Virus record (IMG/VR): IMGVR_UViG_2645727821_000010
Coordinates: 1 to 42,492 of that record
Strand: one strand, 5' to 3'
DNA length: 42,492 nucleotides
Source of the DNA: a virus
Taxonomy: Duplodnaviria; Heunggongvirae; Uroviricota; Caudoviricetes
Shown: positions 2,385-27,806 of the stretch, one piece after another
Layout: each line of letters begins with the position of its first letter
Position numbering within the stretch: position 1 is the stretch's first letter
Notes under the pieces: generated by a model
Database searches by the model: none
What the model saw: the letters and a program-made list of their open reading frames with translations, nothing else
Told to the model about the DNA's origin: nothing
Made by a program: the position numbers and the translations under genes

Positions 2385-3238
2385 TCACTATTACTAAAGA
2401 GCGACTGCTGACAATCAAGCAGTGGCGCGAAACATACGGACCTGATAGCAACGTTGTACTGCCAGCAGAAGAAGCGGAAGAACTGGCGCGTATCGTGCTG
2501 GCATCGCTGGAAGCAGAGCCTGTTCTGTATCAGTCCTGCACTCGCCCCACCTGGAATAGCGGTGTTCCGTGGACGGAATGGAAAGAACGTAGTCGTGAGT
2601 GCTACGAAGACGATTTGCGTTTTACAGACACGCCTGACCATGCCGGTTGGATATACAAATGTCGAAAACTATATACCACTCCGCCAGCGCCGATAGCGTT
2701 AGAGGCCATTGAAAACGCAATTGAATACATTCGTAGTATCGCTTTTCACATCGATGAAGACGATTACCACGGCAAACATATTGCGTATTTCATGCGACAA
2801 GCATTGGCCTGGCTGGAAGGGCATTCATGCAGCGACGACAGACTGGGTAAAGCCGACAATCAACCAGTACGCGGCAACCAGGCTGCCGAATCCAATCGCG
2901 GTAATGAGTGGACCGGCAATCCTGATATTGATAACGCAATCATCATGCTCGACCGCATAGATACGGCGGAAAGTTACGATGATGACCGTATTGAGGCTGT
3001 TAAGGCTGTTTTGCGTAGACTGGCAGGCAACTCTCCGGTAACTCCGGATGGTTGGATAAGCTGTAGTGAGCGAATGCCCCCTCAAGATGATTGGATTTTA
3101 ATTTATTCAAAGCACGGCGAGTATATGGCAGGACAGGTACAAGGGGAATACGTGGAGTTGAGCGACGGCACTTTATCGTGGTTAGGGAACGCCTTGTTCT
3201 GGATGCCGCTACCAGAACCGCCGCAGGAGGCGAAATGA
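2381..3238 (+). CDS. hypothetical protein, 285 aa; N-terminal domain paralogous to the gene at 971, Trp-rich C-terminal region
   Basis: ORF track; ATGA overlap with the upstream stop. Confidence 0.65.
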   Translation: MITITKERLLTIKQWRETYGPDSNVVLPAEEAEELARIVLASLEAEPVLYQSCTRPTWNSGVPWTEWKERSRECYEDDLRFTDTPDHAGWIYKCRKLYTTPPAPIALEAIENAIEYIRSIAFHIDEDDYHGKHIAYFMRQALAWLEGHSCSDDRLGKADNQPVRGNQAAESNRGNEWTGNPDIDNAIIMLDRIDTAESYDDDRIEAVKAVLRRLAGNSPVTPDGWISCSERMPPQDDWILIYSKHGEYMAGQVQGEYVELSDGTLSWLGNALFWMPLPEPPQEAK

Positions 3239-3495
3239 TGGATGTAAAAGAGAAGGTTTTGCAGGTGATGCGTTCCCGGGCTGCCCTGCAAGATAAAGCT
3301 CTCGGCGGGGAATATCCATTCAGGATGGCAACCTGGAATCTGCGGTTGGCAATGGAGAAGGAATTTCCTGATGAAGAATGGCGTTCGGCAGATTTGCGCA
3401 AAATTCTTATGGAGCTGGCTAAAGACGGAACAGTATCCAAAGATACCCATGCCAGCCGGATTGGTCAGGCGGTATGGAGACTGGAGGTGAGGTAA
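3235..3495 (+). CDS. hypothetical protein, 86 aa
   Basis: ATG at 3235 overlapping the upstream stop, preceded by CAGGAGG at 3224-3230; internal start of ORF 3091..3495. Confidence 0.5.
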   Translation: MMDVKEKVLQVMRSRAALQDKALGGEYPFRMATWNLRLAMEKEFPDEEWRSADLRKILMELAKDGTVSKDTHASRIGQAVWRLEVR

Positions 3496-15589: not shown

Positions 15590-16621
15590 ATGTCCAATTT
15601 ACTGACCGTACATCAAAATTTGCCTGCATTACCGGTCGATGCAACGAGTGATGAGGTTCGCAAGAACCTGATGGACATGTTCAGGGATCGCCAGGCGTTT
15701 TCTGAGCATACCTGGAAAATGCTTCTGTCCGTTTGCCGGTCATGGGCGGCATGGTGCAAGTTGAATAACCGGAAATGGTTTCCCGCAGAACCTGAAGATG
15801 TTCGCGATTATCTTCTATATCTTCAGGCGCGCGGTCTGGCAGTGAAAACTATCCAGCAACATTTGGGCCAGCTAAATATGCTTCATCGTCGGTCCGGGCT
15901 GCCACGACCAAGTGACAGCAATGCTGTTTCACTGGTCATGCGACGGATCCGAAAAGAAAACGTTGATGCCGGTGAGCGTGCAAAACAGGCGCTGGCGTTC
16001 GAACGCACTGATTTCGACCAGGTTCGTTCACTCATGGGAAATAGCGATCGCTGCCAGGATATACGGAATCTGGCATTTCTGGGGATTGCTTATAACACCC
16101 TGTTACGTATAGCCGAAATTGCCAGGATCAGGGTTAAAGATATCTCACGTACTGACGGTGGGAGAATGTTAATCCATATTGGCAGAACGAAAACGCTGGT
16201 TAGCACCGCAGGTGTAGAGAAGGCACTTAGCCTGGGGGTAACTAAACTGGTCGAGCGATGGATTTCCGTCTCTGGTGTGGCTGATGATCCGAATAACTAC
16301 TTGTTTTGCCGGGTCAGAAAAAATGGTGTTGCCTCGCCATCATCCACCAGCCAGCTATCAACTCGCGCCCTGGAAGGGATTTTTGAAGCAACTCACCGAT
16401 TGATTTACGGGGCTAAGGATGACTCTGGTCAGAGGTACCTGGCCTGGTCTGGACACAGTGCCCGTGTCGGAGCCGCGCGAGATATGGCCCGCGCCGGAGT
16501 TTCAATACCGGAGATCATGCAAGCTGGTGGCTGGACCAACGTAAATATTGTCATGAACTATATCCGTAACCTGGATAGTGAAACAGGGGCAATGGTGCGC
16601 CTGCTGGAAGATGGCGATTAG
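15590..16621 (+). CDS. cre: Cre tyrosine site-specific recombinase, 343 aa
   Basis: Translation essentially identical to P1 Cre; catalytic R173, H289, R292, W315 and Y324 are all present; loxP lies 418 bp upstream. Confidence 0.98.
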   Translation: MSNLLTVHQNLPALPVDATSDEVRKNLMDMFRDRQAFSEHTWKMLLSVCRSWAAWCKLNNRKWFPAEPEDVRDYLLYLQARGLAVKTIQQHLGQLNMLHRRSGLPRPSDSNAVSLVMRRIRKENVDAGERAKQALAFERTDFDQVRSLMGNSDRCQDIRNLAFLGIAYNTLLRIAEIARIRVKDISRTDGGRMLIHIGRTKTLVSTAGVEKALSLGVTKLVERWISVSGVADDPNNYLFCRVRKNGVASPSSTSQLSTRALEGIFEATHRLIYGAKDDSGQRYLAWSGHSARVGAARDMARAGVSIPEIMQAGGWTNVNIVMNYIRNLDSETGAMVRLLEDGD

Positions 16622-17838: not shown

Positions 17839-17979
17839 TCAGTCAGAATCATCACATGCCCGGTACGGATGGATCCCTTTTCAAATATTCCATGGACGGC
17901 ACAGTCTGAGTACCGGGCGCTACCTTCAGTTGTATTGCTAAGCCGCCGCTGGTGGCTTTTCTTTTTTATAAGGGGCGCT

Positions 17980-18621
17980 ATGGATAAGAAAATATGCGTT
18001 GTTTCGATGAGCGTCGGCAAACCGGCGTCAATGACTGCCGCATGGATCAACAATGAGCTGATAATGGCTGAGCGGACCAGCTACCCTGAACGCCGCCGCG
18101 ATATGGAACTCCAGCTGCTGCGCGAATTGCGAGAAAAAGAGGAAAAGGGTTTTATCGTGCTGGTGGAAGAGGAAAACAGCTTTATTACGGGTCGAGTTGG
18201 CCAGCGTGTAAGGTTGCGCGATCCCTTCATGAACGGCAGGCCGGTACTAATTGAAGCAATGCAGATTTACAAGGAGCTGGAACGCCAGAAAGCGATCAAG
18301 TTACCGCGCAAAGAATCCGGCAAATACATCCTCCACCAAAGCATCTTCGATTCCGAACACGACAAAAAAGGCGATGAATTTTTCAACATCAACTGGAGCG
18401 AAATAACGACAGAGCACGTTCTGTCGTTGTTATGCTGCTTCGCAACGGAATATAACAACGTTGCAAGCGCCGACTACATCAGGGCAATGGCTGGAGAAGT
18501 TGAGGCCCGCCAGGAACCATCGTTACTAAGCCCTCTGATTAACATAATTCGCGGAACCCAATGTCTAGCCGACAAGCGAGTTCCTCAAGGCTTACTTACC
18601 GGCAAAGAAAACTATTTATAA
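17980..18621 (+). CDS. mat: Mat-like particle maturation protein (alternative starts at 17833 or 17869)
   Basis: ORF track 17833..18621; ATG at 17980 has AAGGGG upstream; assigned by synteny (after ref), not by recognised sequence. Confidence 0.5.
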   Translation: MDKKICVVSMSVGKPASMTAAWINNELIMAERTSYPERRRDMELQLLRELREKEEKGFIVLVEEENSFITGRVGQRVRLRDPFMNGRPVLIEAMQIYKELERQKAIKLPRKESGKYILHQSIFDSEHDKKGDEFFNINWSEITTEHVLSLLCCFATEYNNVASADYIRAMAGEVEARQEPSLLSPLINIIRGTQCLADKRVPQGLLTGKENYL

Positions 18622-18653
18622 TTAATTACGTCAGTAGCCAATAGAGATTTTTG

Positions 18654-18682
18654 TTGTGGAACAAAAATATATATTTTACAAT
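18654..18682 (+). promoter_or_regulatory. candidate sigma70 promoter for the accessory cassette: -35 TTGTGG (18654-18659), 17-bp spacer, -10 TACAAT (18677-18682)
   Basis: Hexamers and spacing read directly; about 30 bp upstream of the cassette start. Confidence 0.3.
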
Positions 18683-18711
18683 CTAGTAACTTTGGGTGGA
18701 GGATTATTACA

Positions 18712-19752
18712 ATGATGAATATTAAGCCGCTGAAAATTAGGAACAAGGTCATGAAGCCTCATAAAGCATCATTAAACCCTGACCTAACCGCAAGGAATGT
18801 ACTTACATACAGTCATTGGGATTTTGTCGAACTCTGGTTAAAGCGAAACGAAAAAGATGAGGCTCTTTTTTATTGGGAGCAAGCAAAAGTATTTAATCAG
18901 GCGGCCAATGGTTTACCCAACCAATCAGCCCCACTTTTGCACTATTATTCATTCATGAATGCAGTAAAGGCGTTACTTTCATCTCGCAATATAAACTTCA
19001 AACAGCATCATGGTGTTGCTAGGGGTGAAAATGCAGCCCAAATTGATAACTTATCTGATATAAAAGTAAAAATAAAAAATGAGGGTATACTTCCGTCTTT
19101 TTCAAAATATATTGACGGCACCTCTCATGAGGGGGTGTACAATATAAAAAACCTTTTTTCTGGATTGCCATATATTCATCGTACATATTGCCTTACTTAT
19201 GATGTAACTGATGATATATTTATTCCACTGATCGATGCTGAGTTCGTTTTGAATGAGTCAGACAATAGCCTGTTTTTCACTGCGATTTTATCCAAGGATT
19301 TTCGGTTCGACACAGTTTTCGACATTCTACCGCCAGCGTTCGAATTGTTTGAAAGAGAAAAGTACAAAATAAAATCAGTAGAATCATTACTTGATTTTAA
19401 TGAAAATCAATCGTCCAACATGCCGCAATTAACTGAATTTCATCAAAAAATAAGAAGAAATCTTTACTATATCAATGGCGCAGAGACTCTTTGGTATCTC
19501 AAACGTAAAAACAATCAATCTGAGCATACTTCTGTTTCAATATCGCCATTGGTTATAACCCTAGCAGCTATGCATCGATTAAGTGAGCTATGTCGGTATG
19601 ACCCACTTAAGCTAAGACAGTTACTAAATGAAAAAGAAAACTGGATTATTGCTGAATTTATTCAACAATCTCCGTCACAGTTTATAGATGCAATTTCATC
19701 TGAAATTACTGGACACCAATTTCTTATCCCAAACGTAAGGTCTGCTTCTTAA
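18712..19752 (+). CDS. hypothetical protein, 346 aa, first gene of a low-GC accessory cassette; possible R-x6-H motif (R265...H272)
   Basis: ORF track; GGTGGAGGA ribosome-binding site; A/T-rich codon usage unlike the flanking P1 backbone; no family recognised with confidence. Confidence 0.7.
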   Translation: MMNIKPLKIRNKVMKPHKASLNPDLTARNVLTYSHWDFVELWLKRNEKDEALFYWEQAKVFNQAANGLPNQSAPLLHYYSFMNAVKALLSSRNINFKQHHGVARGENAAQIDNLSDIKVKIKNEGILPSFSKYIDGTSHEGVYNIKNLFSGLPYIHRTYCLTYDVTDDIFIPLIDAEFVLNESDNSLFFTAILSKDFRFDTVFDILPPAFELFEREKYKIKSVESLLDFNENQSSNMPQLTEFHQKIRRNLYYINGAETLWYLKRKNNQSEHTSVSISPLVITLAAMHRLSELCRYDPLKLRQLLNEKENWIIAEFIQQSPSQFIDAISSEITGHQFLIPNVRSAS

Positions 19753-20261
19753 TGAATATATATATCGCATGCGCTTTAACTCATGTTCCAAGGGAAATTT
19801 TCCATGAGTACAGTAATTGGATTCACAGCCTTGCAAAAGGTTTATCTCAAAATAACAACGTAAAATATGCTTTGATAAATAGTGACCCAGAATTATCAAA
19901 GCGCCCTGAAAGTAACAAATCTAGACTTTGTTACATTTGGGACAGAGATATGGTTGAGAAATCTGATGTAATAATTGCAGAATGTAGTTTTCCATCAACA
20001 GGGCTAGGAATAGAGTTGCAGATTGCTGAACAGAAGAACATTCCTGTAATCATCTGTTATAAAGATTATGGGATAAATAAAACTAAAACCATTGAATACG
20101 TGAATCCAGATGAGACTACCCATAATCTACAAGTTGGCGAGGGTTTCATTTCTCATATGGTATTAGGACTACCAAACATCCTTGATGTCATATTATGTAA
20201 AGATATTGATAACACATGCAGGAAGCTAAAAATACTGTTAGATATGATTAACCATAATTAA
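19752..20261 (+). CDS. nucleoside 2-deoxyribosyltransferase-like (NDT/DNPH1-type flavodoxin-like fold) protein, 169 aa
   Basis: TAATG translational coupling to the upstream gene; N-terminal NIYIACAL and central SDVIIAECSFPSTGLGIELQIAEQKNIPVI resemble the NDT-family pattern with a candidate catalytic Glu88. Confidence 0.7.
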   Translation: MNIYIACALTHVPREIFHEYSNWIHSLAKGLSQNNNVKYALINSDPELSKRPESNKSRLCYIWDRDMVEKSDVIIAECSFPSTGLGIELQIAEQKNIPVIICYKDYGINKTKTIEYVNPDETTHNLQVGEGFISHMVLGLPNILDVILCKDIDNTCRKLKILLDMINHN

Positions 20262-20291
20262 AAATTAACACCCACTTAAGATGTCTAAACC

Positions 20292-20311
20292 AGCCCGGTA
20301 TTAACCGGGCT
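20292..20311. terminator. hairpin AGCCCGGT-ATTA-ACCGGGCT between the convergent NDT-like gene and lxc
   Basis: 8-bp perfect stem with a 4-nt loop; weak flanking T-tracts. Confidence 0.4.
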
Positions 20312-20319
20312 AGACAAAC

Positions 20320-20568
20320 TTAATCAGCATTCAGGAGCAATGCATTATCTATGATGATTTGCTCCCATTCTTCGAATGCCCGGTCGCGGACGCCCTGGGG
20401 AACGCTGTTAGTTTTGAAATCGACGACCGTACGCCATTTCCCGTCCGGGCGGTACATGCGCAGAGCTTTACTTCCCCCTTCCCTGCGCACCTCAACGTTA
20501 TGCTTATCAGCAAACTCTTGTAATGCTCGTAGCGTCCCATGCTTTACTGTGTAGTATCGCTTTTTCAA
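20320..20568 (-). CDS. lxc: Lxc/Bof-like modulator of C1 repression, 82 aa, TTG start
   Basis: Size and position downstream of ulx and darB, as in P1; the start codon read from the sequence is TTG. Confidence 0.7.
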   Translation of the reverse strand: MKKRYYTVKHGTLRALQEFADKHNVEVRREGGSKALRMYRPDGKWRTVVDFKTNSVPQGVRDRAFEEWEQIIIDNALLLNAD

Positions 20569-21005
20569 GTTTTCTCTCCAGCCTGTGCCAAGGCTTCAAC
20601 TTCCAAATCGTAAGACTCAAACTCATAGTCCTGGTCGTCAACTTCTTCAGGCACTGGCAGTAAATGCCAGGCTGAGTATATCTGACCATTATCAAAACGC
20701 TCCTGGCTGTAGAGCGTCGCGGCTATGAGTGTTAGCGCCGGGCGGTCATAACGGTAAATTTTGCGAACGTCACGGTCAACGAGACGACCGAAATTACCAT
20801 AACCGCGCTCCAGTAATAATTTTTTAATTTCCGGCCAGTATGGACCATAGCTGCGGTACAGGCGGGGATTTTTCAGTAATCGCCCGCGTAGCCCTGACAG
20901 GAAGAAATCAACGTATTCGTCTTCTGTCTTTCCTAACAACGCTGTACGGAGTACCGCCTCAAGATATGTTTTATTCGGTTTTATTGTATCAGATAGTGTG
21001 GCCAT
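20565..21005 (-). CDS. ulx: Ulx-like protein, 146 aa
   Basis: Position between darB and lxc, as in P1; overlaps the lxc start. Confidence 0.6.
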   Translation of the reverse strand: MATLSDTIKPNKTYLEAVLRTALLGKTEDEYVDFFLSGLRGRLLKNPRLYRSYGPYWPEIKKLLLERGYGNFGRLVDRDVRKIYRYDRPALTLIAATLYSQERFDNGQIYSAWHLLPVPEEVDDQDYEFESYDLEVEALAQAGEKT

Positions 21006-21038: not shown

Positions 21039-24000
21039 TTATGCGTATTGTTGGATGACGGCCAGAACGTCCGCCACGTTGTGTTTTGTCTCGATAATCC
21101 ACCAGTTACCTGGGAAGTCGCTGTTCTTCGCCTTCGCTGGCAACCAGCGAGCGCCGAATTTCGCCTTGATTGCGTCTTTCGCACGGAAAAGAACCCCTTT
21201 CATGCCGGAGGCTTCCTGAAGCCCAAATACCTCGCCAGCGGCGAATTTTGGTGCGTACATCATCTTCAGGTCGGCGGTGGATACGCGATAATTCAGACCA
21301 AGAGACTGAGCTATGCTGGTGGCATCACCCTGTATTGATGATAACTCTTCTTGTTTCTCGTTTCTGGCAGCAATTTCTTCCTCCGTGATGTTGCCAAGGG
21401 CCAGGTTTATCCGATCAGCGTCTGCCTGTTTCTCTTCATCGGTGCGCCCGGCAAGTACCGTGTTAATTCTGTGCAATATCTCCACATGATTCTTGCGCAT
21501 GCTGAGCAATTCCGGCGTAACCTCGTTAAGGTCCACCAGCCCAAGGATGGCAAGGTCGGTAAACATTGATACCAGGTTGTAGGTCATGCGATAGCTGAGT
21601 TGCCCATAGGCTGATGGCAACTGCACCGCATCCATTTTATAGGCATCCATAAATTTAGAGCCGTCGTTTACGACATCCGCAATTGCCGGTGTGATTTTTC
21701 CTGTGGTGGCGGCCTCCCTGATTGCTGTTACCCACGATTGAGTCAGCGCGGCGACTGCATGATTCAGATTGACTTTCCGTTCTGCTGCAATGCGCGCGCT
21801 TGCTGCGTCCATTGCCTGCTTGATCTCGTCTTTATTGCTGTAAATGCCAATGGTGCCAAACTGTGCTGTGGTGATCTCATAATCTGACGCCCGGAACTCA
21901 TTGGTACCGAAAATGGCATTGGTGACTTCAAGTTCAGAATCCCCGTTACGAGTAGCCCCCTGGCTTGTTTTCTCCGGCATTCTGGCGATCGCATCCGCTA
22001 TTTTCTCCTGAATTGCTTCAGGGGATAGCGTATCTCCGTATGACGCGATTACATCGCCATAATTGGAGCCAAACAGTTCAACCAGGAATGCTTCTGCCGA
22101 ACGGATCTGGCGGTTATTCCCTTCCGACATCATACCAAGCACCCATTTTGCAATTGACGACTTCAGCGCGCCGTCACGGCGATCCGGGTAAACCGCATGC
22201 TTCAGTGGGTCCGTATAGGTACCAACAAAATCAATGCTATAGCCTGACTCTGTAGTCTGAACGCCGTATGAGTCAGTGATTTTGATCATGCCGCGCTGCT
22301 GGAAACGGTAGAAATCGTCACAGGAAACGATGTCGTTAATCCCGGCGATGGAGACGCCACCACTGATTTTCTGCATAACAGCATCTTCATCGGGAGTTAC
22401 ATCAACCTGTTTATCCAGCGTCTTCACATCCCAGTTACCAGATTTGGTGCCTTTGAAGGTGAAGATGATCTCCACGTCTGCGCGCTGGCTGTCGAAGTCC
22501 AGCGACTTAATGCGAACGATATCACCGGCACAATCGTAGTATTGGCCTACACGCCATGAGCGATCGCCGATAACAAGGAACTCACTCGCATGGTTAACCA
22601 GGTCAGGATCAACATCCAGAATGCCTTTATTTAATGCATCCTCCACCAGCGGGCGCAGGCGTTTGATATCCGTCGCGGCCTTCTGAGTACGGTTCAATAA
22701 TTTCTCATAGCGGGAGATGGCTTGAGAGATATTAGCCTTGCGCTGAATGGCGCTTTTCAACGACGCGCGATACTGTGCTAACAACATACGGTCTGTGTGA
22801 TGGACACTCCCCCAGCGTGCCTTCCAGTCTGCGTTATCCGCTGCCTTGGCCATTGCCGCCTGTTTGAATTTAGCTACCTCGGCGGTGGTCTTTTCAAGTT
22901 CCGCTTTGCTTCGCTCTAATTCAGCGGTAAGCACCTCCACATCCTCACCAGCTGCGTGCTGCGCCTTGATGTAGTTCTGAAGGTCGATAGTAGCCTGTTC
23001 TTTCTGGCGAGCGCGTTGCGCGGCTTTCGCCTTATCCATTTGAACCTGCATCATTGCCAGACGTTCGCCATCATCCTTAGCGGTATACATCTGCATTTCG
23101 ATCATATCGTTGGCGTCGGCGTTCTCCATTTCTGACTTATCTGAACGGAGGATATCGGAGATCCAGCCTGCTTTACGCTTCAGCGTCTTCAGTCGGTATT
23201 CATCGAAAGAACCCTTGCCGCAGTAGTAGTGAACGCGAACGCTTGCACGGTTGGAGCCAACTCGGGCACCGCGACCGTTTCGTTGCGCAATACTGGCTGG
23301 AGTCCATGGCAACGTCAGATGATGGATGTCAGTCGTTCCTCGATGCAGGTTGATACCCACCTCTGCCTTTTTGTTGCAGATGATGATCGGAGTCCGGCCC
23401 TCCTGGAAGTCGGCTGCAATCTTTTCCAGACCGCCCAACGACATTTCATTTTGCTGCGCGATATAGGCGTCATACAGAGCCATTTGCTCGTTGTATTTCG
23501 CTATCTGTGCATCTGTTGGTTCATCCGGTAACTCTTTCGGCGGTTTAACCGCTTTCAGTTTCTTACCGGTTTTACCTGCCTCGGCAACCGTCTGAGCATT
23601 CAGTATCCCCACCTTTGAAGGTTCAAGGTTAAGAGCATTGCAGATAATGCGCTTGAGCTTCTGGTGCTGCGTTTTTTCATCGGTGAAGATGATTTGCTTA
23701 CCTTCCGGGAAAAACTCCTTCAGCGTGGCAATCAGCTTCGCGTATTTGGGCGTAACGGGGTGAGTTACGGTCTGTTCGTCAATGCCAAACCTGGCCAGGC
23801 GCTTATTCACTTCCTGCTCGAACGCTTCCGGAACCTGCAACTGAATAAACTCGCCCTTATCTATCAGGGAGTATTGCGATTGCTGCGTGATTGAATCATC
23901 ACTGTCGTCGTCTTCGCTGGTGGCTTGTTTAGGCAAACTGTCTGCCAGCTGCTGCACCGCATCGGCGTACTCCGGCAGGAAACGATAGGTGATCCGGCGA

Positions 24001-27000
24001 TAGTACAGGTCCATGTCAGTACATACGCGGTCCATATCCCTGATTATTGAGAAGATCGGACGGGCTTTCTCGTGCTCAATCACGCCGTCTTCATTGACCG
24101 AGGTCGTTACACCATTGTTGGCTTTGGCCGCCGCTTCCGCCTGCTGACGCAATTCTTCATACGCCGCCAGTTGTTCTTCAGTAAGTGGTGCATCCTGCTG
24201 GTGTTCGTCCAGTTCCGGGATCTCCACGGTATCCTTAACGTCTTCCGCCGTTTTAAGCGTTGTCCAGCGATGGAATATGCCGCGCAGCGCATCAAGGTTT
24301 TCAAAACCCACCAGCGCCATTTTTTCTTCAACTTCGCCGCTGATTTTCTGTACCGTTTCCAGCCTGGTCTTGCCGAAGAATTTTACGAAGTCATCAGGAC
24401 TGTAGATCCCCATCTTCTGCCAGTATTCCTTCGGCAGAACATGAGAAAGCATGTTGTATGCATCGATCGGGGTGTTAACGACTGGTGTTGCAGTCAGGAG
24501 AACCGGTCCGCGCCCGCCATTCTTTTTCATCAAGTACGCGTTTTTGATTGCCATATCTCGCGCCGATTGCGCCACCGCGCTGGTGGGCAGATAGGCCAGC
24601 TGTGACGCTTCGCGACCATTTTTATAGCTATTGCGGTAGTTGTGGCCTTCGTCAGCAATCACGCTGTCGAAGCCCATATCCTCAAAGTACGGATACTTCT
24701 CTGCTTTTTCGGTACCGGTATCTGAATACTCCGACAATACCCGGCGACGCGCCGCCTCTTTGCGGTGGGAGTCGGAGTCCATTGCGCTGGCTACGCGCCC
24801 GGCGGCAACGAAGTCATAAAGCATGTCTTGTGCATGCTCATCTACGGTGTCATCACGTAGCGGAATGCGGGCGTATTGTTCTTTGGTAAACACGACTGCA
24901 CGGTAATTTGAGTGCGGGATCGCGTTCATCCGCGCCGTGATAGTGGCTTCATCTGCCAGCTTAAGAGCATCGCGCATAACTGGAGTGCCATCAGTACCAA
25001 GAACAGGTTTACCGTTCTCATTGAGCACCGGCACCTGGCGAATCTGATCGCCATCCATCAGCACATCAAGACCGACGAACAAGTAGTTACTGAATGCCTC
25101 TTCACTCAGGAATTCTTTTGCTTCGTAATACCAATTTTCCAGCACTGATTTAGGCACTACATACGCAGTACGGGTGGAGCGACCGTTCTCATAGTTGAAC
25201 GCCTCAAGCGCCAGCGCGGTCGTGGTTTTACCCAGCCCGGTGCCGAAGCCCAGGATGCCGCGCCCATCTTCGGACAGTCGGCGCACCTCGCTATTCTGGT
25301 AATCAAATGGCTGGCGCTTACCGCTTAATCCCTTCAACCCAAGCGGATCGCCAGAGTGTTCATACGGGATATTGCTATTGAACACATCGTTGTATTTGGC
25401 AACCAGCTCATCGTAGCGATCGTGCGTCTTGATCCACTTATTGAACTGGTCCTCAAGCAGTGCCATCTGCTCGCGGTAGCCGTTCGCCGTCGCGCTATCT
25501 TTGCCACCGATACGCGCACCATTGAGATACTTTTCCAGCTGTGCCGGGAACCCGGTCGCGTTTTCACCTGATTTACGGTCCCACTCGTAGCGAATCTCAC
25601 CTGTTTCTTTATCCTTGCGCTGGACGACACCGTATCGGTGCCCGACGAACAGACCATCACCACCGTGATAGGTGTCAGAAACCATTTCGTCGCCTTCCAG
25701 CTGCACTGACTGCACATAGCGCAGATCCGGATAGCCGTTTTCCTGCAAAAATTCCAGAATGACGGAACGGTCGAACCAACGGCTATTGAGCTTAAACCGG
25801 ATATTCTCTGCTGGCGTCTTGATGCGCTTCTCTTCGATAGCTGCCAGCTGATTAAGGACGTTGTTCTTTACTGGACCGTCGGGGAGTGTGGCGAGGAATT
25901 CCTGTTTTGGAGCCACTATCTCGTTAATGTCGCCGCTGGTGGCGCGGGCGAACGGAACAATCCCGCCATACGGTGAAACCGCAATACCAGGGGTGCTGGC
26001 CAATAAATTAAGCAACTCTTCATCACTGGCTGGCAGTTCGCCGGTAAACGCAAGGCGGAAATCATCGAGCTGGATTGGATCGCGGGGGAGATCGCTATAG
26101 AGATAACGCAGGGTGTCCTGATAGCTGGTGGAGTCATAACTTGCGCTGGAATCATGCGTAACCAGCTTCCCTGTCAGCTCGTCAGAAATAGTGCCATCCA
26201 GCTTAATTGCACCACGGAAAGCAAACCAGGCGCGCGCACCGCTCCCCGACAATTTCGCTATCGGACCGCGACCGGGGTTACCAAAACGGTCAATCTCTGC
26301 CTGCAAACGGGATACCAGAGAAAGGCGCTGCTGTTCGATTTGTTCAGCACTATGCCCGGCGGCCTTCATGTCCTGATATTCAATTAACATCCGGCCAATC
26401 ATCGCCCCGCGATACAAGCGTTCACGGTATTTTTCAGGCTGGCTGTTAATCCAGTCCACCAGCTGCACCATATCGTCGCTGATTGATGTGGTGTACTTAT
26501 CGCGGACATTTGCCATCTGGGTAAATGTCATGCCGAGACGGCCTTCTGTTGTAGTCAGGTTACGCTGAAGAGCCTCCCAGCTATCCGCGCCATAACTGGC
26601 AGCATCGATCTTAAGTTCCTTCCCGGCATCAGCTTCAATCCAGCGACCACCAGCATATTTTTGCCATACGCCATTAATCAGGCGCATTTCCCCTTCACCA
26701 ACAACGTCTGCGGTCGGTGACGGTTCAGCCATATCGAGCAAAGACCAGTCGATACGGCTTTCGAAACGATGAATCAGCTTCGCTTTAAGAGCCTGGTTAT
26801 CAATCTGACCGTCGGCACGAACCTCAATACGCCCCTGGAAGCCCTTTTCCTGGGTGCCATGAACAAACCGGCGGCCGTCCTTTTCAAACCACTTGCCAGA
26901 AATAAACGTTGGCCAAAGCACATTTGCCGATTCGAGAGTGCTTTCATCCACCAGGGGGATTTTCTCAGCCATCTCTGCCGGATGTTTGCGCATCAGCACC

Positions 27001-27806
27001 ACATCAACAACTGTACTGGTCCCGTTTGCGTCAAAAGTACCGGTAGGCAAGCGGTGGGCACCAAGAAATTCAGCTTTCCGTGATAGGCGCAGGCGTAACC
27101 GCTTCATGTTTGAACCTGAAACAATGGACGGCGGCACAATCACGCACATGAATCCGCCTGGCTTTATCTTGTCCAGCATGCGGAGCATGAAGTAAGAACC
27201 CATGTCCGTTTCTTCTGCGTAAGGCTTATCGATGTTGCGTGTGTTATCACGACCACCGAACGGAACGTTACCCACAACATGGTCGAATGAATCGTTAGGC
27301 GTGCTTACAGCCAGTTGTTCGAACGGAGAAATCTGTACGCTGTCTTCCGGGTGCAACAGCTGGTTTATACGACCGGAAACACTGCTGATCTCAGTCGCGG
27401 TCATCACCGTACCAACCGGTTTTGTCTCATTAAAAACGCCGGTTCCCGCCGATGGTTCCAGAGTGTTACCTACGTCCGCGCCGTAGAGCTTCATGATCTC
27501 CCAGACACCTTCAGCGATCGGCTTTGGTGTGTAATATTCGGAGACGGACCCGCCAATGCCGCCTTCGCCGGTGTACCCAGCCAGGATCTGGCGCTGTTCA
27601 TCTGTCAGTGTCGCGCCGTCCACCAGCGAATTAAGCAAATCTATCGCCTTCTGATTCGCCTCCCGGCGTAGTCGGTCATAGCTTTTGCCTTCCACCTTTT
27701 CCACGCCGTATCTAATCGGCGCTCGGTGAGATGTTATTGCACTAATGTATTTCAATATTTCGCTGACACTTGAACAGCGAAACACCCCCATAGATAGCTT
27801 GTTCAT
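21039..27806 (-). CDS. darB: DarB, defence against restriction protein B (methyltransferase-helicase), 2255 aa
   Basis: Single 6.8-kb ORF; size matches P1 DarB as I recall it; AAGGA ribosome-binding site. Confidence 0.9.
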   Translation of the reverse strand: MNKLSMGVFRCSSVSEILKYISAITSHRAPIRYGVEKVEGKSYDRLRREANQKAIDLLNSLVDGATLTDEQRQILAGYTGEGGIGGSVSEYYTPKPIAEGVWEIMKLYGADVGNTLEPSAGTGVFNETKPVGTVMTATEISSVSGRINQLLHPEDSVQISPFEQLAVSTPNDSFDHVVGNVPFGGRDNTRNIDKPYAEETDMGSYFMLRMLDKIKPGGFMCVIVPPSIVSGSNMKRLRLRLSRKAEFLGAHRLPTGTFDANGTSTVVDVVLMRKHPAEMAEKIPLVDESTLESANVLWPTFISGKWFEKDGRRFVHGTQEKGFQGRIEVRADGQIDNQALKAKLIHRFESRIDWSLLDMAEPSPTADVVGEGEMRLINGVWQKYAGGRWIEADAGKELKIDAASYGADSWEALQRNLTTTEGRLGMTFTQMANVRDKYTTSISDDMVQLVDWINSQPEKYRERLYRGAMIGRMLIEYQDMKAAGHSAEQIEQQRLSLVSRLQAEIDRFGNPGRGPIAKLSGSGARAWFAFRGAIKLDGTISDELTGKLVTHDSSASYDSTSYQDTLRYLYSDLPRDPIQLDDFRLAFTGELPASDEELLNLLASTPGIAVSPYGGIVPFARATSGDINEIVAPKQEFLATLPDGPVKNNVLNQLAAIEEKRIKTPAENIRFKLNSRWFDRSVILEFLQENGYPDLRYVQSVQLEGDEMVSDTYHGGDGLFVGHRYGVVQRKDKETGEIRYEWDRKSGENATGFPAQLEKYLNGARIGGKDSATANGYREQMALLEDQFNKWIKTHDRYDELVAKYNDVFNSNIPYEHSGDPLGLKGLSGKRQPFDYQNSEVRRLSEDGRGILGFGTGLGKTTTALALEAFNYENGRSTRTAYVVPKSVLENWYYEAKEFLSEEAFSNYLFVGLDVLMDGDQIRQVPVLNENGKPVLGTDGTPVMRDALKLADEATITARMNAIPHSNYRAVVFTKEQYARIPLRDDTVDEHAQDMLYDFVAAGRVASAMDSDSHRKEAARRRVLSEYSDTGTEKAEKYPYFEDMGFDSVIADEGHNYRNSYKNGREASQLAYLPTSAVAQSARDMAIKNAYLMKKNGGRGPVLLTATPVVNTPIDAYNMLSHVLPKEYWQKMGIYSPDDFVKFFGKTRLETVQKISGEVEEKMALVGFENLDALRGIFHRWTTLKTAEDVKDTVEIPELDEHQQDAPLTEEQLAAYEELRQQAEAAAKANNGVTTSVNEDGVIEHEKARPIFSIIRDMDRVCTDMDLYYRRITYRFLPEYADAVQQLADSLPKQATSEDDDSDDSITQQSQYSLIDKGEFIQLQVPEAFEQEVNKRLARFGIDEQTVTHPVTPKYAKLIATLKEFFPEGKQIIFTDEKTQHQKLKRIICNALNLEPSKVGILNAQTVAEAGKTGKKLKAVKPPKELPDEPTDAQIAKYNEQMALYDAYIAQQNEMSLGGLEKIAADFQEGRTPIIICNKKAEVGINLHRGTTDIHHLTLPWTPASIAQRNGRGARVGSNRASVRVHYYCGKGSFDEYRLKTLKRKAGWISDILRSDKSEMENADANDMIEMQMYTAKDDGERLAMMQVQMDKAKAAQRARQKEQATIDLQNYIKAQHAAGEDVEVLTAELERSKAELEKTTAEVAKFKQAAMAKAADNADWKARWGSVHHTDRMLLAQYRASLKSAIQRKANISQAISRYEKLLNRTQKAATDIKRLRPLVEDALNKGILDVDPDLVNHASEFLVIGDRSWRVGQYYDCAGDIVRIKSLDFDSQRADVEIIFTFKGTKSGNWDVKTLDKQVDVTPDEDAVMQKISGGVSIAGINDIVSCDDFYRFQQRGMIKITDSYGVQTTESGYSIDFVGTYTDPLKHAVYPDRRDGALKSSIAKWVLGMMSEGNNRQIRSAEAFLVELFGSNYGDVIASYGDTLSPEAIQEKIADAIARMPEKTSQGATRNGDSELEVTNAIFGTNEFRASDYEITTAQFGTIGIYSNKDEIKQAMDAASARIAAERKVNLNHAVAALTQSWVTAIREAATTGKITPAIADVVNDGSKFMDAYKMDAVQLPSAYGQLSYRMTYNLVSMFTDLAILGLVDLNEVTPELLSMRKNHVEILHRINTVLAGRTDEEKQADADRINLALGNITEEEIAARNEKQEELSSIQGDATSIAQSLGLNYRVSTADLKMMYAPKFAAGEVFGLQEASGMKGVLFRAKDAIKAKFGARWLPAKAKNSDFPGNWWIIETKHNVADVLAVIQQYA

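Follow-up and report, generated by a model that had tools for sequence, protein, structure and literature searches.

Between mat and lxc of a P1-like phage-plasmid, represented by the IMG/VR virus record IMGVR_UViG_2645727821_000010 (positions 1 to 42,492; this whole stretch of 42,492 nucleotides is referred to as the window), lies a small, low-GC insert with two genes, A and B. Gene A (18712-19752) and gene B (19752-20261) are both encoded on the plus strand and are translationally coupled, the stop codon of A overlapping the start codon of B in the sequence TAATG. An earlier reading of the window, made from its letters alone and here called the sequence-only reading, had given these coordinates and this anatomy correctly. 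A and B are the only open reading frames of at least 70 amino acids (aa) within the insert. Gene A codes for a YaaC-family protein of 346 aa and gene B for a protein of 169 aa with the predicted fold of DNPH1 and nucleoside 2-deoxyribosyltransferases (NDT). In an allele of the cassette that is 96.1% identical (NZ_CP032890.1; L081:1591-1596), ATT is found at the position of the first ATG of gene A (18712), and gene A therefore probably starts at 18715, giving a protein of 345 aa in agreement with the RefSeq annotation of that allele. From comparative genomics and structure prediction, we give even chances, or slightly better, to the reading that the cassette functions as a two-gene anti-phage defence module acting on nucleotides. 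As a candidate for a new defence system it is good, abundant, and amenable to experiments.

The insert of about 1.7 kb (18622-20319) is a low-GC allele of a slot which in P1-family elements is bordered by conserved genes. In the window, cre (15590-16621), c8, ref, and mat precede it, and lxc, ulx, and darB follow on the opposite strand. The left border, mat (17869-18621, plus strand), shares 94% identity with P1 mat at positions 2716-3468, and the right border, lxc (20320-20568, minus strand), belongs to a segment 98% identical to P1 lxc/ulx, after which come ulx (20565-21005) and darB (21039-27806, minus strand), the latter coding for a product of 2255 aa. BLASTN homology to P1, P7, and JL22 ends at the mat stop codon (18621), that to SJ46 at 18634, and that to OP279344, Ro157c2YLVW, and MH422554 is already lost at about 18489-18503. 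Homology to P1-like relatives is regained at 20301-20322, i.e., at most about 20 bases from the lxc stop codon (20320). As homology is lost at the stop codon of mat and regained at that of lxc, the variable insert is delimited to 18622-20319. The cassette had been called visibly AT-rich, and its GC content of 0.34-0.37 across 18650-20300 indeed differs from the 0.45-0.53 of the flanks. A repeat search found no flanking repeats at the insert borders and, besides an AT-rich inverted repeat, returned only short matches of low identity at chance level. The last ~130 bp of mat (18490-18621) are divergent among P1-like lineages, and slot-swapping recombination may therefore extend into mat.

Just 3' of mat, an AT-only inverted repeat (18640-18675, plus strand) with 16-nucleotide arms, a 4-nucleotide loop, and 88% complementarity overlaps promoter-like hexamers of low similarity to the consensus; it may serve as an operator or terminate transcription weakly, and the predicted fold of 18622-18711 is no more stable than that of shuffled sequence (z -0.15). 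That the cassette possesses its own promoter-like hexamers is the weakest claim of the sequence-only reading. Sigma-70-like hexamers, TTGTGG and TACAAT with 17 nucleotides between them (18654-18682, plus strand), can be read by eye and agree at 8 of 12 positions, but a promoter consensus scan yields nothing above threshold 5' of gene A. A ribosome-binding site, GGAGG (18698-18702, plus strand), is a good match and precedes the ATG of gene A. The hairpin noted at the 3' end is real. It is GC-rich, reads AGCCCGGT-ATTA-ACCGGGCT (20292-20311), and is situated between the convergent gene B and lxc, with a core stem formed by 20292-20299 and 20304-20311 and predicted folding free energies of -21.2 kcal/mol on the plus strand (z -5.8) and -25.4 kcal/mol on the minus strand (z -4.9). 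Transcription arriving from either side, gene B or lxc, probably stops there; a terminator scan did not call it, as no clear T-run follows the stem on the plus strand. No match to the P1 C1 operator was obtained in 18400-20400, and no Rfam match at E<=1 in the cassette.

Other members of the P1 family carry different genes at the same position. The P1 map given in the sequence-only reading, with the type III EcoP1I res-mod genes between mat and lxc, is correct, and P7 likewise carries type III res-mod genes there: in canonical P1 the interval contains res and mod, both on the minus strand, plus IS5, and in P7 it contains the res/mod genes of that phage. A BLASTN check confirmed that genes A and B are absent from canonical P1, which carries res/mod instead. 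In SJ46, the slot is occupied by a 373-aa RelA/SpoT-family protein matching PADLOC PDC-S33 at 7e-87, which we take to be CapRelSJ46. JL22 has a 315-aa PIN_12 protein with a weak match to PADLOC PDC-S34 (L065:1364-2314), OP279344.1 (L066; record title 'P1 isolate del res del mod') and Ro157c2YLVW (NC_050153.1; L067) have an EAL-domain protein together with an AraC-type regulator, MH422554 has about 1.2 kb devoid of any annotated gene (L068:1323-2512), and the slot of RCS47 is almost empty. This series of alleles supports the proposal that accessory genes are swapped in and out at mat-lxc, with defence systems prominent among them, and since the slot holds EcoP1I and, presumably, CapRelSJ46, it should be a cheap site to mine for further systems, with the PIN-domain protein of JL22 and the unannotated 1.2 kb of MH422554 as examples. 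In a literature search on P1 defence hotspots, the slot was not described as a hotspot. CapRelSJ46 is a validated anti-phage system described from phage SJ46 (PMC9712102). The cassette has the same genomic position in P1-family elements as CapRelSJ46 and EcoP1I/EcoP7, which are self-contained systems protecting the lysogen (PMC9712102), but its proteins are unrelated to theirs, and so are their mechanisms, tRNA pyrophosphorylation for CapRelSJ46 and DNA cleavage plus methylation for EcoP1I/EcoP7.

Neither protein resembles a restriction enzyme or a methyltransferase, in agreement with the sequence-only reading; A belongs to the Pfam family YaaC and B has a weak likeness to Nuc_deoxyrib_tr (PF05014). 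Precomputed matches to PF05014 are present in some gene B homologues. A profile of the gene B family matches Rcl/DNPH1 in the PDB at 3.7e-5, and for the AlphaFold2 model of B, with a predicted local distance difference test (pLDDT) score of 95.9, the top PDB matches in Foldseek are DNPH1, NDT, and BcmB, a cytidine monophosphate (CMP) N-glycosidase (E 7e-6 to 3e-4, probability 1.0). When gene B is aligned with human DNPH1 by hhalign (probability 94.8%), residues D64, S82, and E88 pair with D80, S98, and E104; the DNPH1 sequence used agrees with the PDB Rcl alignment, in which D64 and E88 likewise face D80 and E104. Across 39 gene B sequences, E88 and D64 are invariant and S82 is invariant or nearly so. 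In DNPH1, the corresponding residues are the Asp holding the sugar (D80), the Ser binding the phosphate (S98), and the Glu nucleophile (E104). That D80 has been studied is evident from the titles of PDB entries (D80A, D80N bound to 5hmdUMP). Y4 of gene B is invariant within (I/V)Y(I/V)A; the alignments with DNPH1 stop short of the N-terminus (compare the N-terminal catalytic Tyr, Y24 of DNPH1 and Y7 of NDT).

DNPH1/Rcl is thus the best match of gene B in both sequence and structure, and a PS-x-G-x-G-x-E motif is common to both. In contrast, identity over the fold is only 14-18%, the phosphate loop GSIRGG of DNPH1 differs from the N-terminal loop A-x-x-L-T10-H11-V-P-R14 of gene B, and B possesses additional invariant motifs (SDP, CYxWD, and LQxGxG) and a longer C-terminus. 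Also, DNPH1 is a solitary housekeeping enzyme without a HEPN-fold partner. Judged from its conserved residues and its model, B looks like an active N-glycosidase, perhaps of the type that recognises monophosphates. The family is small and tight: at E<=1e-30, the 1.84 billion representatives searched contain 33 clusters of it at 50% identity. A sister group (P0322-P0360) comprises longer proteins (250-565 aa) in which a B-like domain with the motif PSTGTGQELERA precedes long C-terminal extensions that are partly of low complexity and have no Pfam match. The idea that these longer relatives are A-B fusions was rejected, as the extensions are unlike gene A (hhalign probability <1%).

Gene A matches the Pfam family YaaC (PF14175) with 157.7 bits (cutoff 27; E 5.9e-46), its residues 34-332 corresponding to positions 18-307 of the 307 in the model. 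The family has 757 detectable homologues, and PF14175 is present in all 120 homologues listed. In the AlphaFold2 model (pLDDT 91.8), N-terminal helices (about aa 35-97) and C-terminal helices (about aa 277-333) form a helical core that is split by an α/β insert of ~180 aa, and this modelled core is an up-and-down four-helix bundle of the HEPN type. A Foldseek search with the whole chain gave no significant match, and a PDB sequence search with the full gene A profile gave nothing. With a profile lacking the insert, the PDB search returned only a HEPN toxin below threshold (E 0.71), and Pfam recognised only YaaC in the insert-less core. In the alignment with the HEPN toxin 7ae2, which as a profile alignment is weak (E 0.71), the toxin motif RNRLV(H)E(Y) faces the start of the last helix of gene A, reading x-N310-W311-x-x-[S/A/T]314-E315-F316; the HEPN motif Rx4-6H is degenerate in gene A. 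Invariant in the family are H100-G101, H156-R157, H288-R289, R295-Y296, E315, E331, and a C-terminal P-N-x-R. Mean column identity is 0.75-0.79 in the core and 0.57 in the insert, with values down to 0.40 near aa 211-240.

Two other assignments for gene A were discarded. A HEPN Rx6H motif at R91...H99 fails on R91, which is not conserved, and a 2H-phosphoesterase reading of the insert, suggested by Usb1 as top Foldseek match and by H156-R-T-Y, is not significant (E 0.42, TM score <0.2). As compared with HEPN proteins acting in abortive infection or as toxins (MNT-HEPN toxins, the C-terminal domain of AbiA, and UPF0332/AF0298), gene A differs in having x-N-W-x-x-[S/A/T]-E-F in place of Rx4-6H, in a domain split by the ~180-aa insert, and in a partner that is an N-glycosidase and not a nucleotidyltransferase. 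Gene A shares its Pfam family with YaaC of Bacillus subtilis, the founder of PF14175. The B. subtilis gene is chromosomal, lies near guaB, and has no known function, and we know of no NDT-like partner reported for it.

A and B form one unit over a wide range of bacteria. A scan with the gene B profile, using one genome per GTDB species, provided 55 loci, and in about 47 of them a match to the A family lies just 5' of B on the same strand; where the pair is full-length, the gap between A and B is at most 22 nucleotides in 45 of 46 loci. Hosts include Proteobacteria, Bacteroidota, Planctomycetota, Acidobacteriota, Cyanobacteria, Nitrospirota, and others. Six IMG/VR contigs were found with A, and B is situated downstream in all six. 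Pairwise distance matrices of A and B are correlated (r 0.76, a value reached in 0 of 2000 Mantel permutations), and by this comparison of sequences the two genes co-evolve. In a comparison with the 96%-identical allele, A has a dN/dS of 0.25 and B one of 0.045, values which place both genes under purifying selection, and dozens of columns are invariant across phyla in the alignments of both. These data bear on the notion that the cassette hitch-hikes as cargo without a function or is a remnant in decay, for which its weak promoter and some frameshifted family members might speak. The purifying selection, the invariant columns, the confident models of both proteins, and the presence of the exact A and B protein sequences on at least 1000 contigs each largely refute this notion, and we rate it as scarcely credible. 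Disrupted copies are an A frameshifted in L005 and a B frameshifted in L057 and in L073, mostly in metagenome-assembled genomes (MAGs) or draft assemblies; in L070, where A is intact, the seemingly truncated B reflects a difference in gene calling and no mutation.

Gene B homologues also occur with partners other than YaaC. In a Desulfarculales MAG (L010:9009-10540) and a Bacteroidetes MAG (L022:8946-10531), the partner to which a B homologue is translationally coupled is a DCD-fold dCTP deaminase, which matches TIGR02274 above cutoff (96.6 bits), carries a C-terminal membrane tail of two helices, and matches no PADLOC model. The L010 pair adjoins a restriction-type helicase and a Fic protein, and B together with the DCD-fold deaminase may be another undescribed nucleotide-targeting pair. 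In two Acidobacteriaceae MAGs (L036:9223-10591 and L057:9414-10602), a B homologue follows a ShosT-like phosphoribosyltransferase (PRTase; PADLOC ShosT, about 1e-7). As B is coupled to YaaC, to a DCD-type deaminase, or to a ShosT-like PRTase, it is repeatedly partnered with nucleotide-acting proteins.

In the ShosTA system the antitoxin ShosA follows the PRTase toxin ShosT (PMC11961720), a place taken by B in L036 and L057. This arrangement is one of the points in favour of the main rival of a defence function, which holds that the cassette mainly keeps the plasmid prophage stable, as a toxin-antitoxin (addiction) module. Either the HEPN-fold A or, through destruction of nucleotides, B would be the toxin, the other would neutralise it by binding or by an enzymatic activity, and defence would be a side effect. 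The compact layout, two overlapping genes in one operon that occurs on plasmids, prophages, and islands, would suit such a module, as would the position of B directly 3' of the ShosT-like PRTase in Acidobacteria (PMC11961720) and the frequent presence of toxin-antitoxin pairs (HicAB, HigBA-like) among the neighbours. However, gene A has lost the Rx4-6H RNase motif behind HEPN toxicity, no DNA-binding antitoxin domain (helix-turn-helix, ribbon-helix-helix, or AbrB) was detected in A or B, and the disruption of A in L005 and of B in L057 and L073 argues against strict dependence of one gene on the other, with the proviso that these are mostly MAGs or draft assemblies. Furthermore, P1 already carries an addiction module, phd-doc. 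We therefore regard a mainly toxin-antitoxin function as unlikely, and it overlaps with the defence reading and does not exclude it.

The genomic surroundings of the pair, which were inspected gene by gene in ten independent contexts, are mostly rich in genes of biological conflict. A variant with 59% identity in E. coli resides in an integrase island between BrxR and a Dpd DNA-modification cluster, and in Yersinia the pair is found in the accessory region of a P2-like prophage, in the gpS-gpV interval, with a HigBA-like pair adjoining; the hotspot study of Rousset (2022) covers the gpA-gpQ locus of P2 and not this region. On three metagenome contigs, the pair comes directly after BREX PglZ/BrxL, adjoins a CBASS CD-NTase with a patatin effector, or adjoins a type ISP restriction enzyme, a WYL regulator, and an integrase. 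In Kangiella it is situated two genes after an AbiTii protein, in Nitrospina it adjoins HicAB, and in Myxococcus a PAAR-toxin locus flanks it on one side and an integrase on the other. Neighbours up to two positions away, 164 genes in all, were scanned as a pool and include type I restriction-modification, Mrr, DUF488, Gabija, a Pycsar cyclase, a CBASS E1-E2 protein, dGTPase, MADS, AbiEii, several PADLOC candidate systems, integrases, and unrelated genes. Judged from gene content, this pattern is typical of a mobile conflict system; the pair is recurrently located in defence islands or hotspots of mobile elements, a recurrence that is uncalibrated against background.

The same contexts bear on a further alternative, in which the cassette serves nucleotide metabolism or benefits the phage, be it by sanitising the pool of deoxynucleoside monophosphates (dNMPs), as DNPH1 does for 5hm-dUMP, by salvage, or by counter-defence, in which destruction of the nucleotide signals of host immunity would profit the P1-like element. 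The closest solved relatives of B are DNPH1, a 5-hydroxymethyl-dUMP N-hydrolase, and biosynthetic CMP N-glycosidases; the P1 genes flanking the cassette, ulx and darB, have anti-restriction functions; and some contexts, i.e., Aeromonas and L088, are housekeeping neighbourhoods. In contrast, the patchy distribution over phyla, the low GC content, and the residence in integrase islands and accessory regions of phages are in the style of conflict systems and not of core metabolism. Most copies are chromosomal and lie beside defence systems, and near and distant DNA searches found no cassette-like DNA in 50,697 GenBank phage records, with a handful of copies in IMG/VR. In addition, DefensePredictor scores A as defensive in its supplementary Table S10. 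All this makes a metabolic or counter-defence role a distinctly improbable one.

The DefensePredictor study (Science 2026) lists in that table WP_059338150.1 as a 'Predicted novel defense gene' with a mean log-odds of 11.04; the entry is a 346-aa YaaC family protein of E. coli, listed as having no meaningful homology to known defence proteins, and the study reports that higher log-odds go with a higher validation rate. According to RefSeq, the gene for WP_059338150.1 has mat on one side and B on the other within an integrated P1-like element, where the cassette is 99.7% identical to our insert, and from this placement and identity it follows that WP_059338150.1 is gene A. Within the portions of the supplementary tables that were searched, the protein is present in Table S10 alone, and it is not among the tested units given in those portions. 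RefSeq names A 'YaaC family protein' and B 'hypothetical protein', and no model of NCBIfam release 20 (June 2026) or PHROGs v4 matches either of them; a PADLOC check of both proteins, as the sequence-only reading had proposed, also gave no model match. Literature searches on YaaC, PF14175, and HEPN with deoxyribosyltransferase found no description of the pair, and within the library covered no paper referred to PF14175 or to YaaC in this sense. A survey of HEPN domains from 2013 predicted NDT domains to be toxin modules in architectures resembling abortive-infection systems. What is already known is that both folds occur in immunity, that gene A has been flagged by machine learning, and that candidate systems are numerous, whereas the A-B pair, the role of the YaaC family, and the substrate of B are undescribed. 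The suspicion of the sequence-only reading that this is an undescribed candidate defence, abortive-infection, or toxin-antitoxin module fits with the lack of a PADLOC, NCBIfam, or PHROG model and of any paper text, with the conflict-rich contexts, and with the DefensePredictor call.

What we infer for the cassette is a defence function, a substrate for B, and the assignment of sensor and effector to A and B, and we are less confident of the particular mechanism, with B as output and A as sensor, than of defence as such. The cassette would be a self-contained, horizontally mobile module which occupies a slot expressed in the lysogen and is expressed from the prophage-plasmid in place of EcoP1I. 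B would provide the catalytic output, cleaving the base off nucleoside or deoxynucleoside 5'-monophosphates or, alternatively, acting on a related nucleotide, with NAD+ and hydroxymethylated dNMPs as candidates. Its activity might drain or spoil the nucleotide supply, so that DNA synthesis of the phage would be starved or poisoned. A might be a HEPN-fold protein with a re-purposed site, in which the canonical RNase motif is gone and a large insert that evolves faster has been acquired, and it would either sense infection and gate B or run an upstream step that supplies the substrate of B. In its boldest form, the proposal would be that YaaC together with a DNPH1-like partner constitutes an unrecognised, phylum-spanning immune system in which a HEPN-fold sensor A, catalytically re-purposed, switches on a glycosidase B that irreversibly destroys nucleoside monophosphates or dNMPs, possibly with the preference of human DNPH1 for hydroxymethylated dNMPs, and that the B family is also coupled to DCD-type deaminases or ShosT-like PRTases. 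This we put forward only tentatively, as a reading that is less likely to hold than not.

Among known systems, the NDT-like effector of retron Ec86 (Eco1), for which depletion of adenine and its derivatives has been reported, resembles the proposed module in that an NDT-fold enzyme is the toxic output of an anti-phage system. It differs in that the retron effector is held by a reverse transcriptase and multicopy single-stranded DNA, whereas the cassette encodes no reverse transcriptase and has no Rfam RNA; likewise, no PADLOC retron model matches the cassette, and no retron effector is among the top Foldseek matches of B. ShosTA (a PRTase toxin with a DprA-like antitoxin), the defensive dCTP deaminase, and the dGTPase are, like the proposed module, one- or two-gene systems acting on nucleotide pools. 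In some genomes a ShosT-like PRTase or a DCD-fold deaminase precedes a B homologue, and dGTPase genes occur near the pair, but the cassette itself contains neither a PRTase nor a deaminase.

Several observations weigh against a nucleotide-acting defence module. The match of gene B to PF05014 (E 1.8e-4, 22.1 bits) is under the gathering cutoff of 28.8. Since the canonical catalytic Arg and His of HEPN domains are not conserved in the gene A family, no known effector chemistry can be assigned to A, and its ~180-aa insert has no structural match in Foldseek. No model of PADLOC-DB v2 matches A or B at E<=1. The related retron effector is tied to depletion of adenine derivatives and not to dNMP hydrolysis. 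In Aeromonas the pair resides in a housekeeping neighbourhood with no conflict gene near, and in L088 the neighbours are mostly housekeeping genes, with a gene of the PD-(D/E)XK family close by. The census of neighbours counts families, includes near-duplicate loci, and has no background control. The slot allele with EAL-domain protein and AraC-type regulator does not look like defence, and hence not all alleles of mat-lxc are defence genes. Finally, the promoter is weak, which makes expression of the cassette in the lysogen presumptive.

If the cassette indeed acts in defence, it would shape the range of phages, therapeutic ones included, to which its carrier strains are susceptible, and P1-like phage-plasmids, of which about one in seven has the cassette, are common in clinical and animal isolates of E. 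coli and Salmonella. A new gene pair would then join the few immune systems that act on nucleotide pools, a first function would be assigned to the YaaC family, and human DNPH1, a nucleotide-sanitising enzyme, would gain a bacterial counterpart.

Cassette DNA is present in 85 PLSDB plasmids, i.e., in 85 of 699 plasmids positive for lxc-ulx (about 12%), and in 109 of 5426 complete E. coli genomes, i.e., in 109 of 699 genomes positive for lxc-ulx (16%). Chromosomal sites of the cassette number three among the 5426 E. coli genomes, and the one copy inspected, in E. coli PK8241 (L082; NZ_CP080139.1 4986843-5012540), is part of a whole integrated P1-like element, which adjoins IS26, TnAs3, and IS200C and interrupts an iron ABC transporter gene. 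Copies of lxc-ulx with at least 99% identity were found in 86 plasmids and 101 E. coli records, numbers near the 85 and 109 carriers of the cassette. These similar counts suggest that the cassette is tied to one P1-like lineage with one lxc-ulx haplotype.

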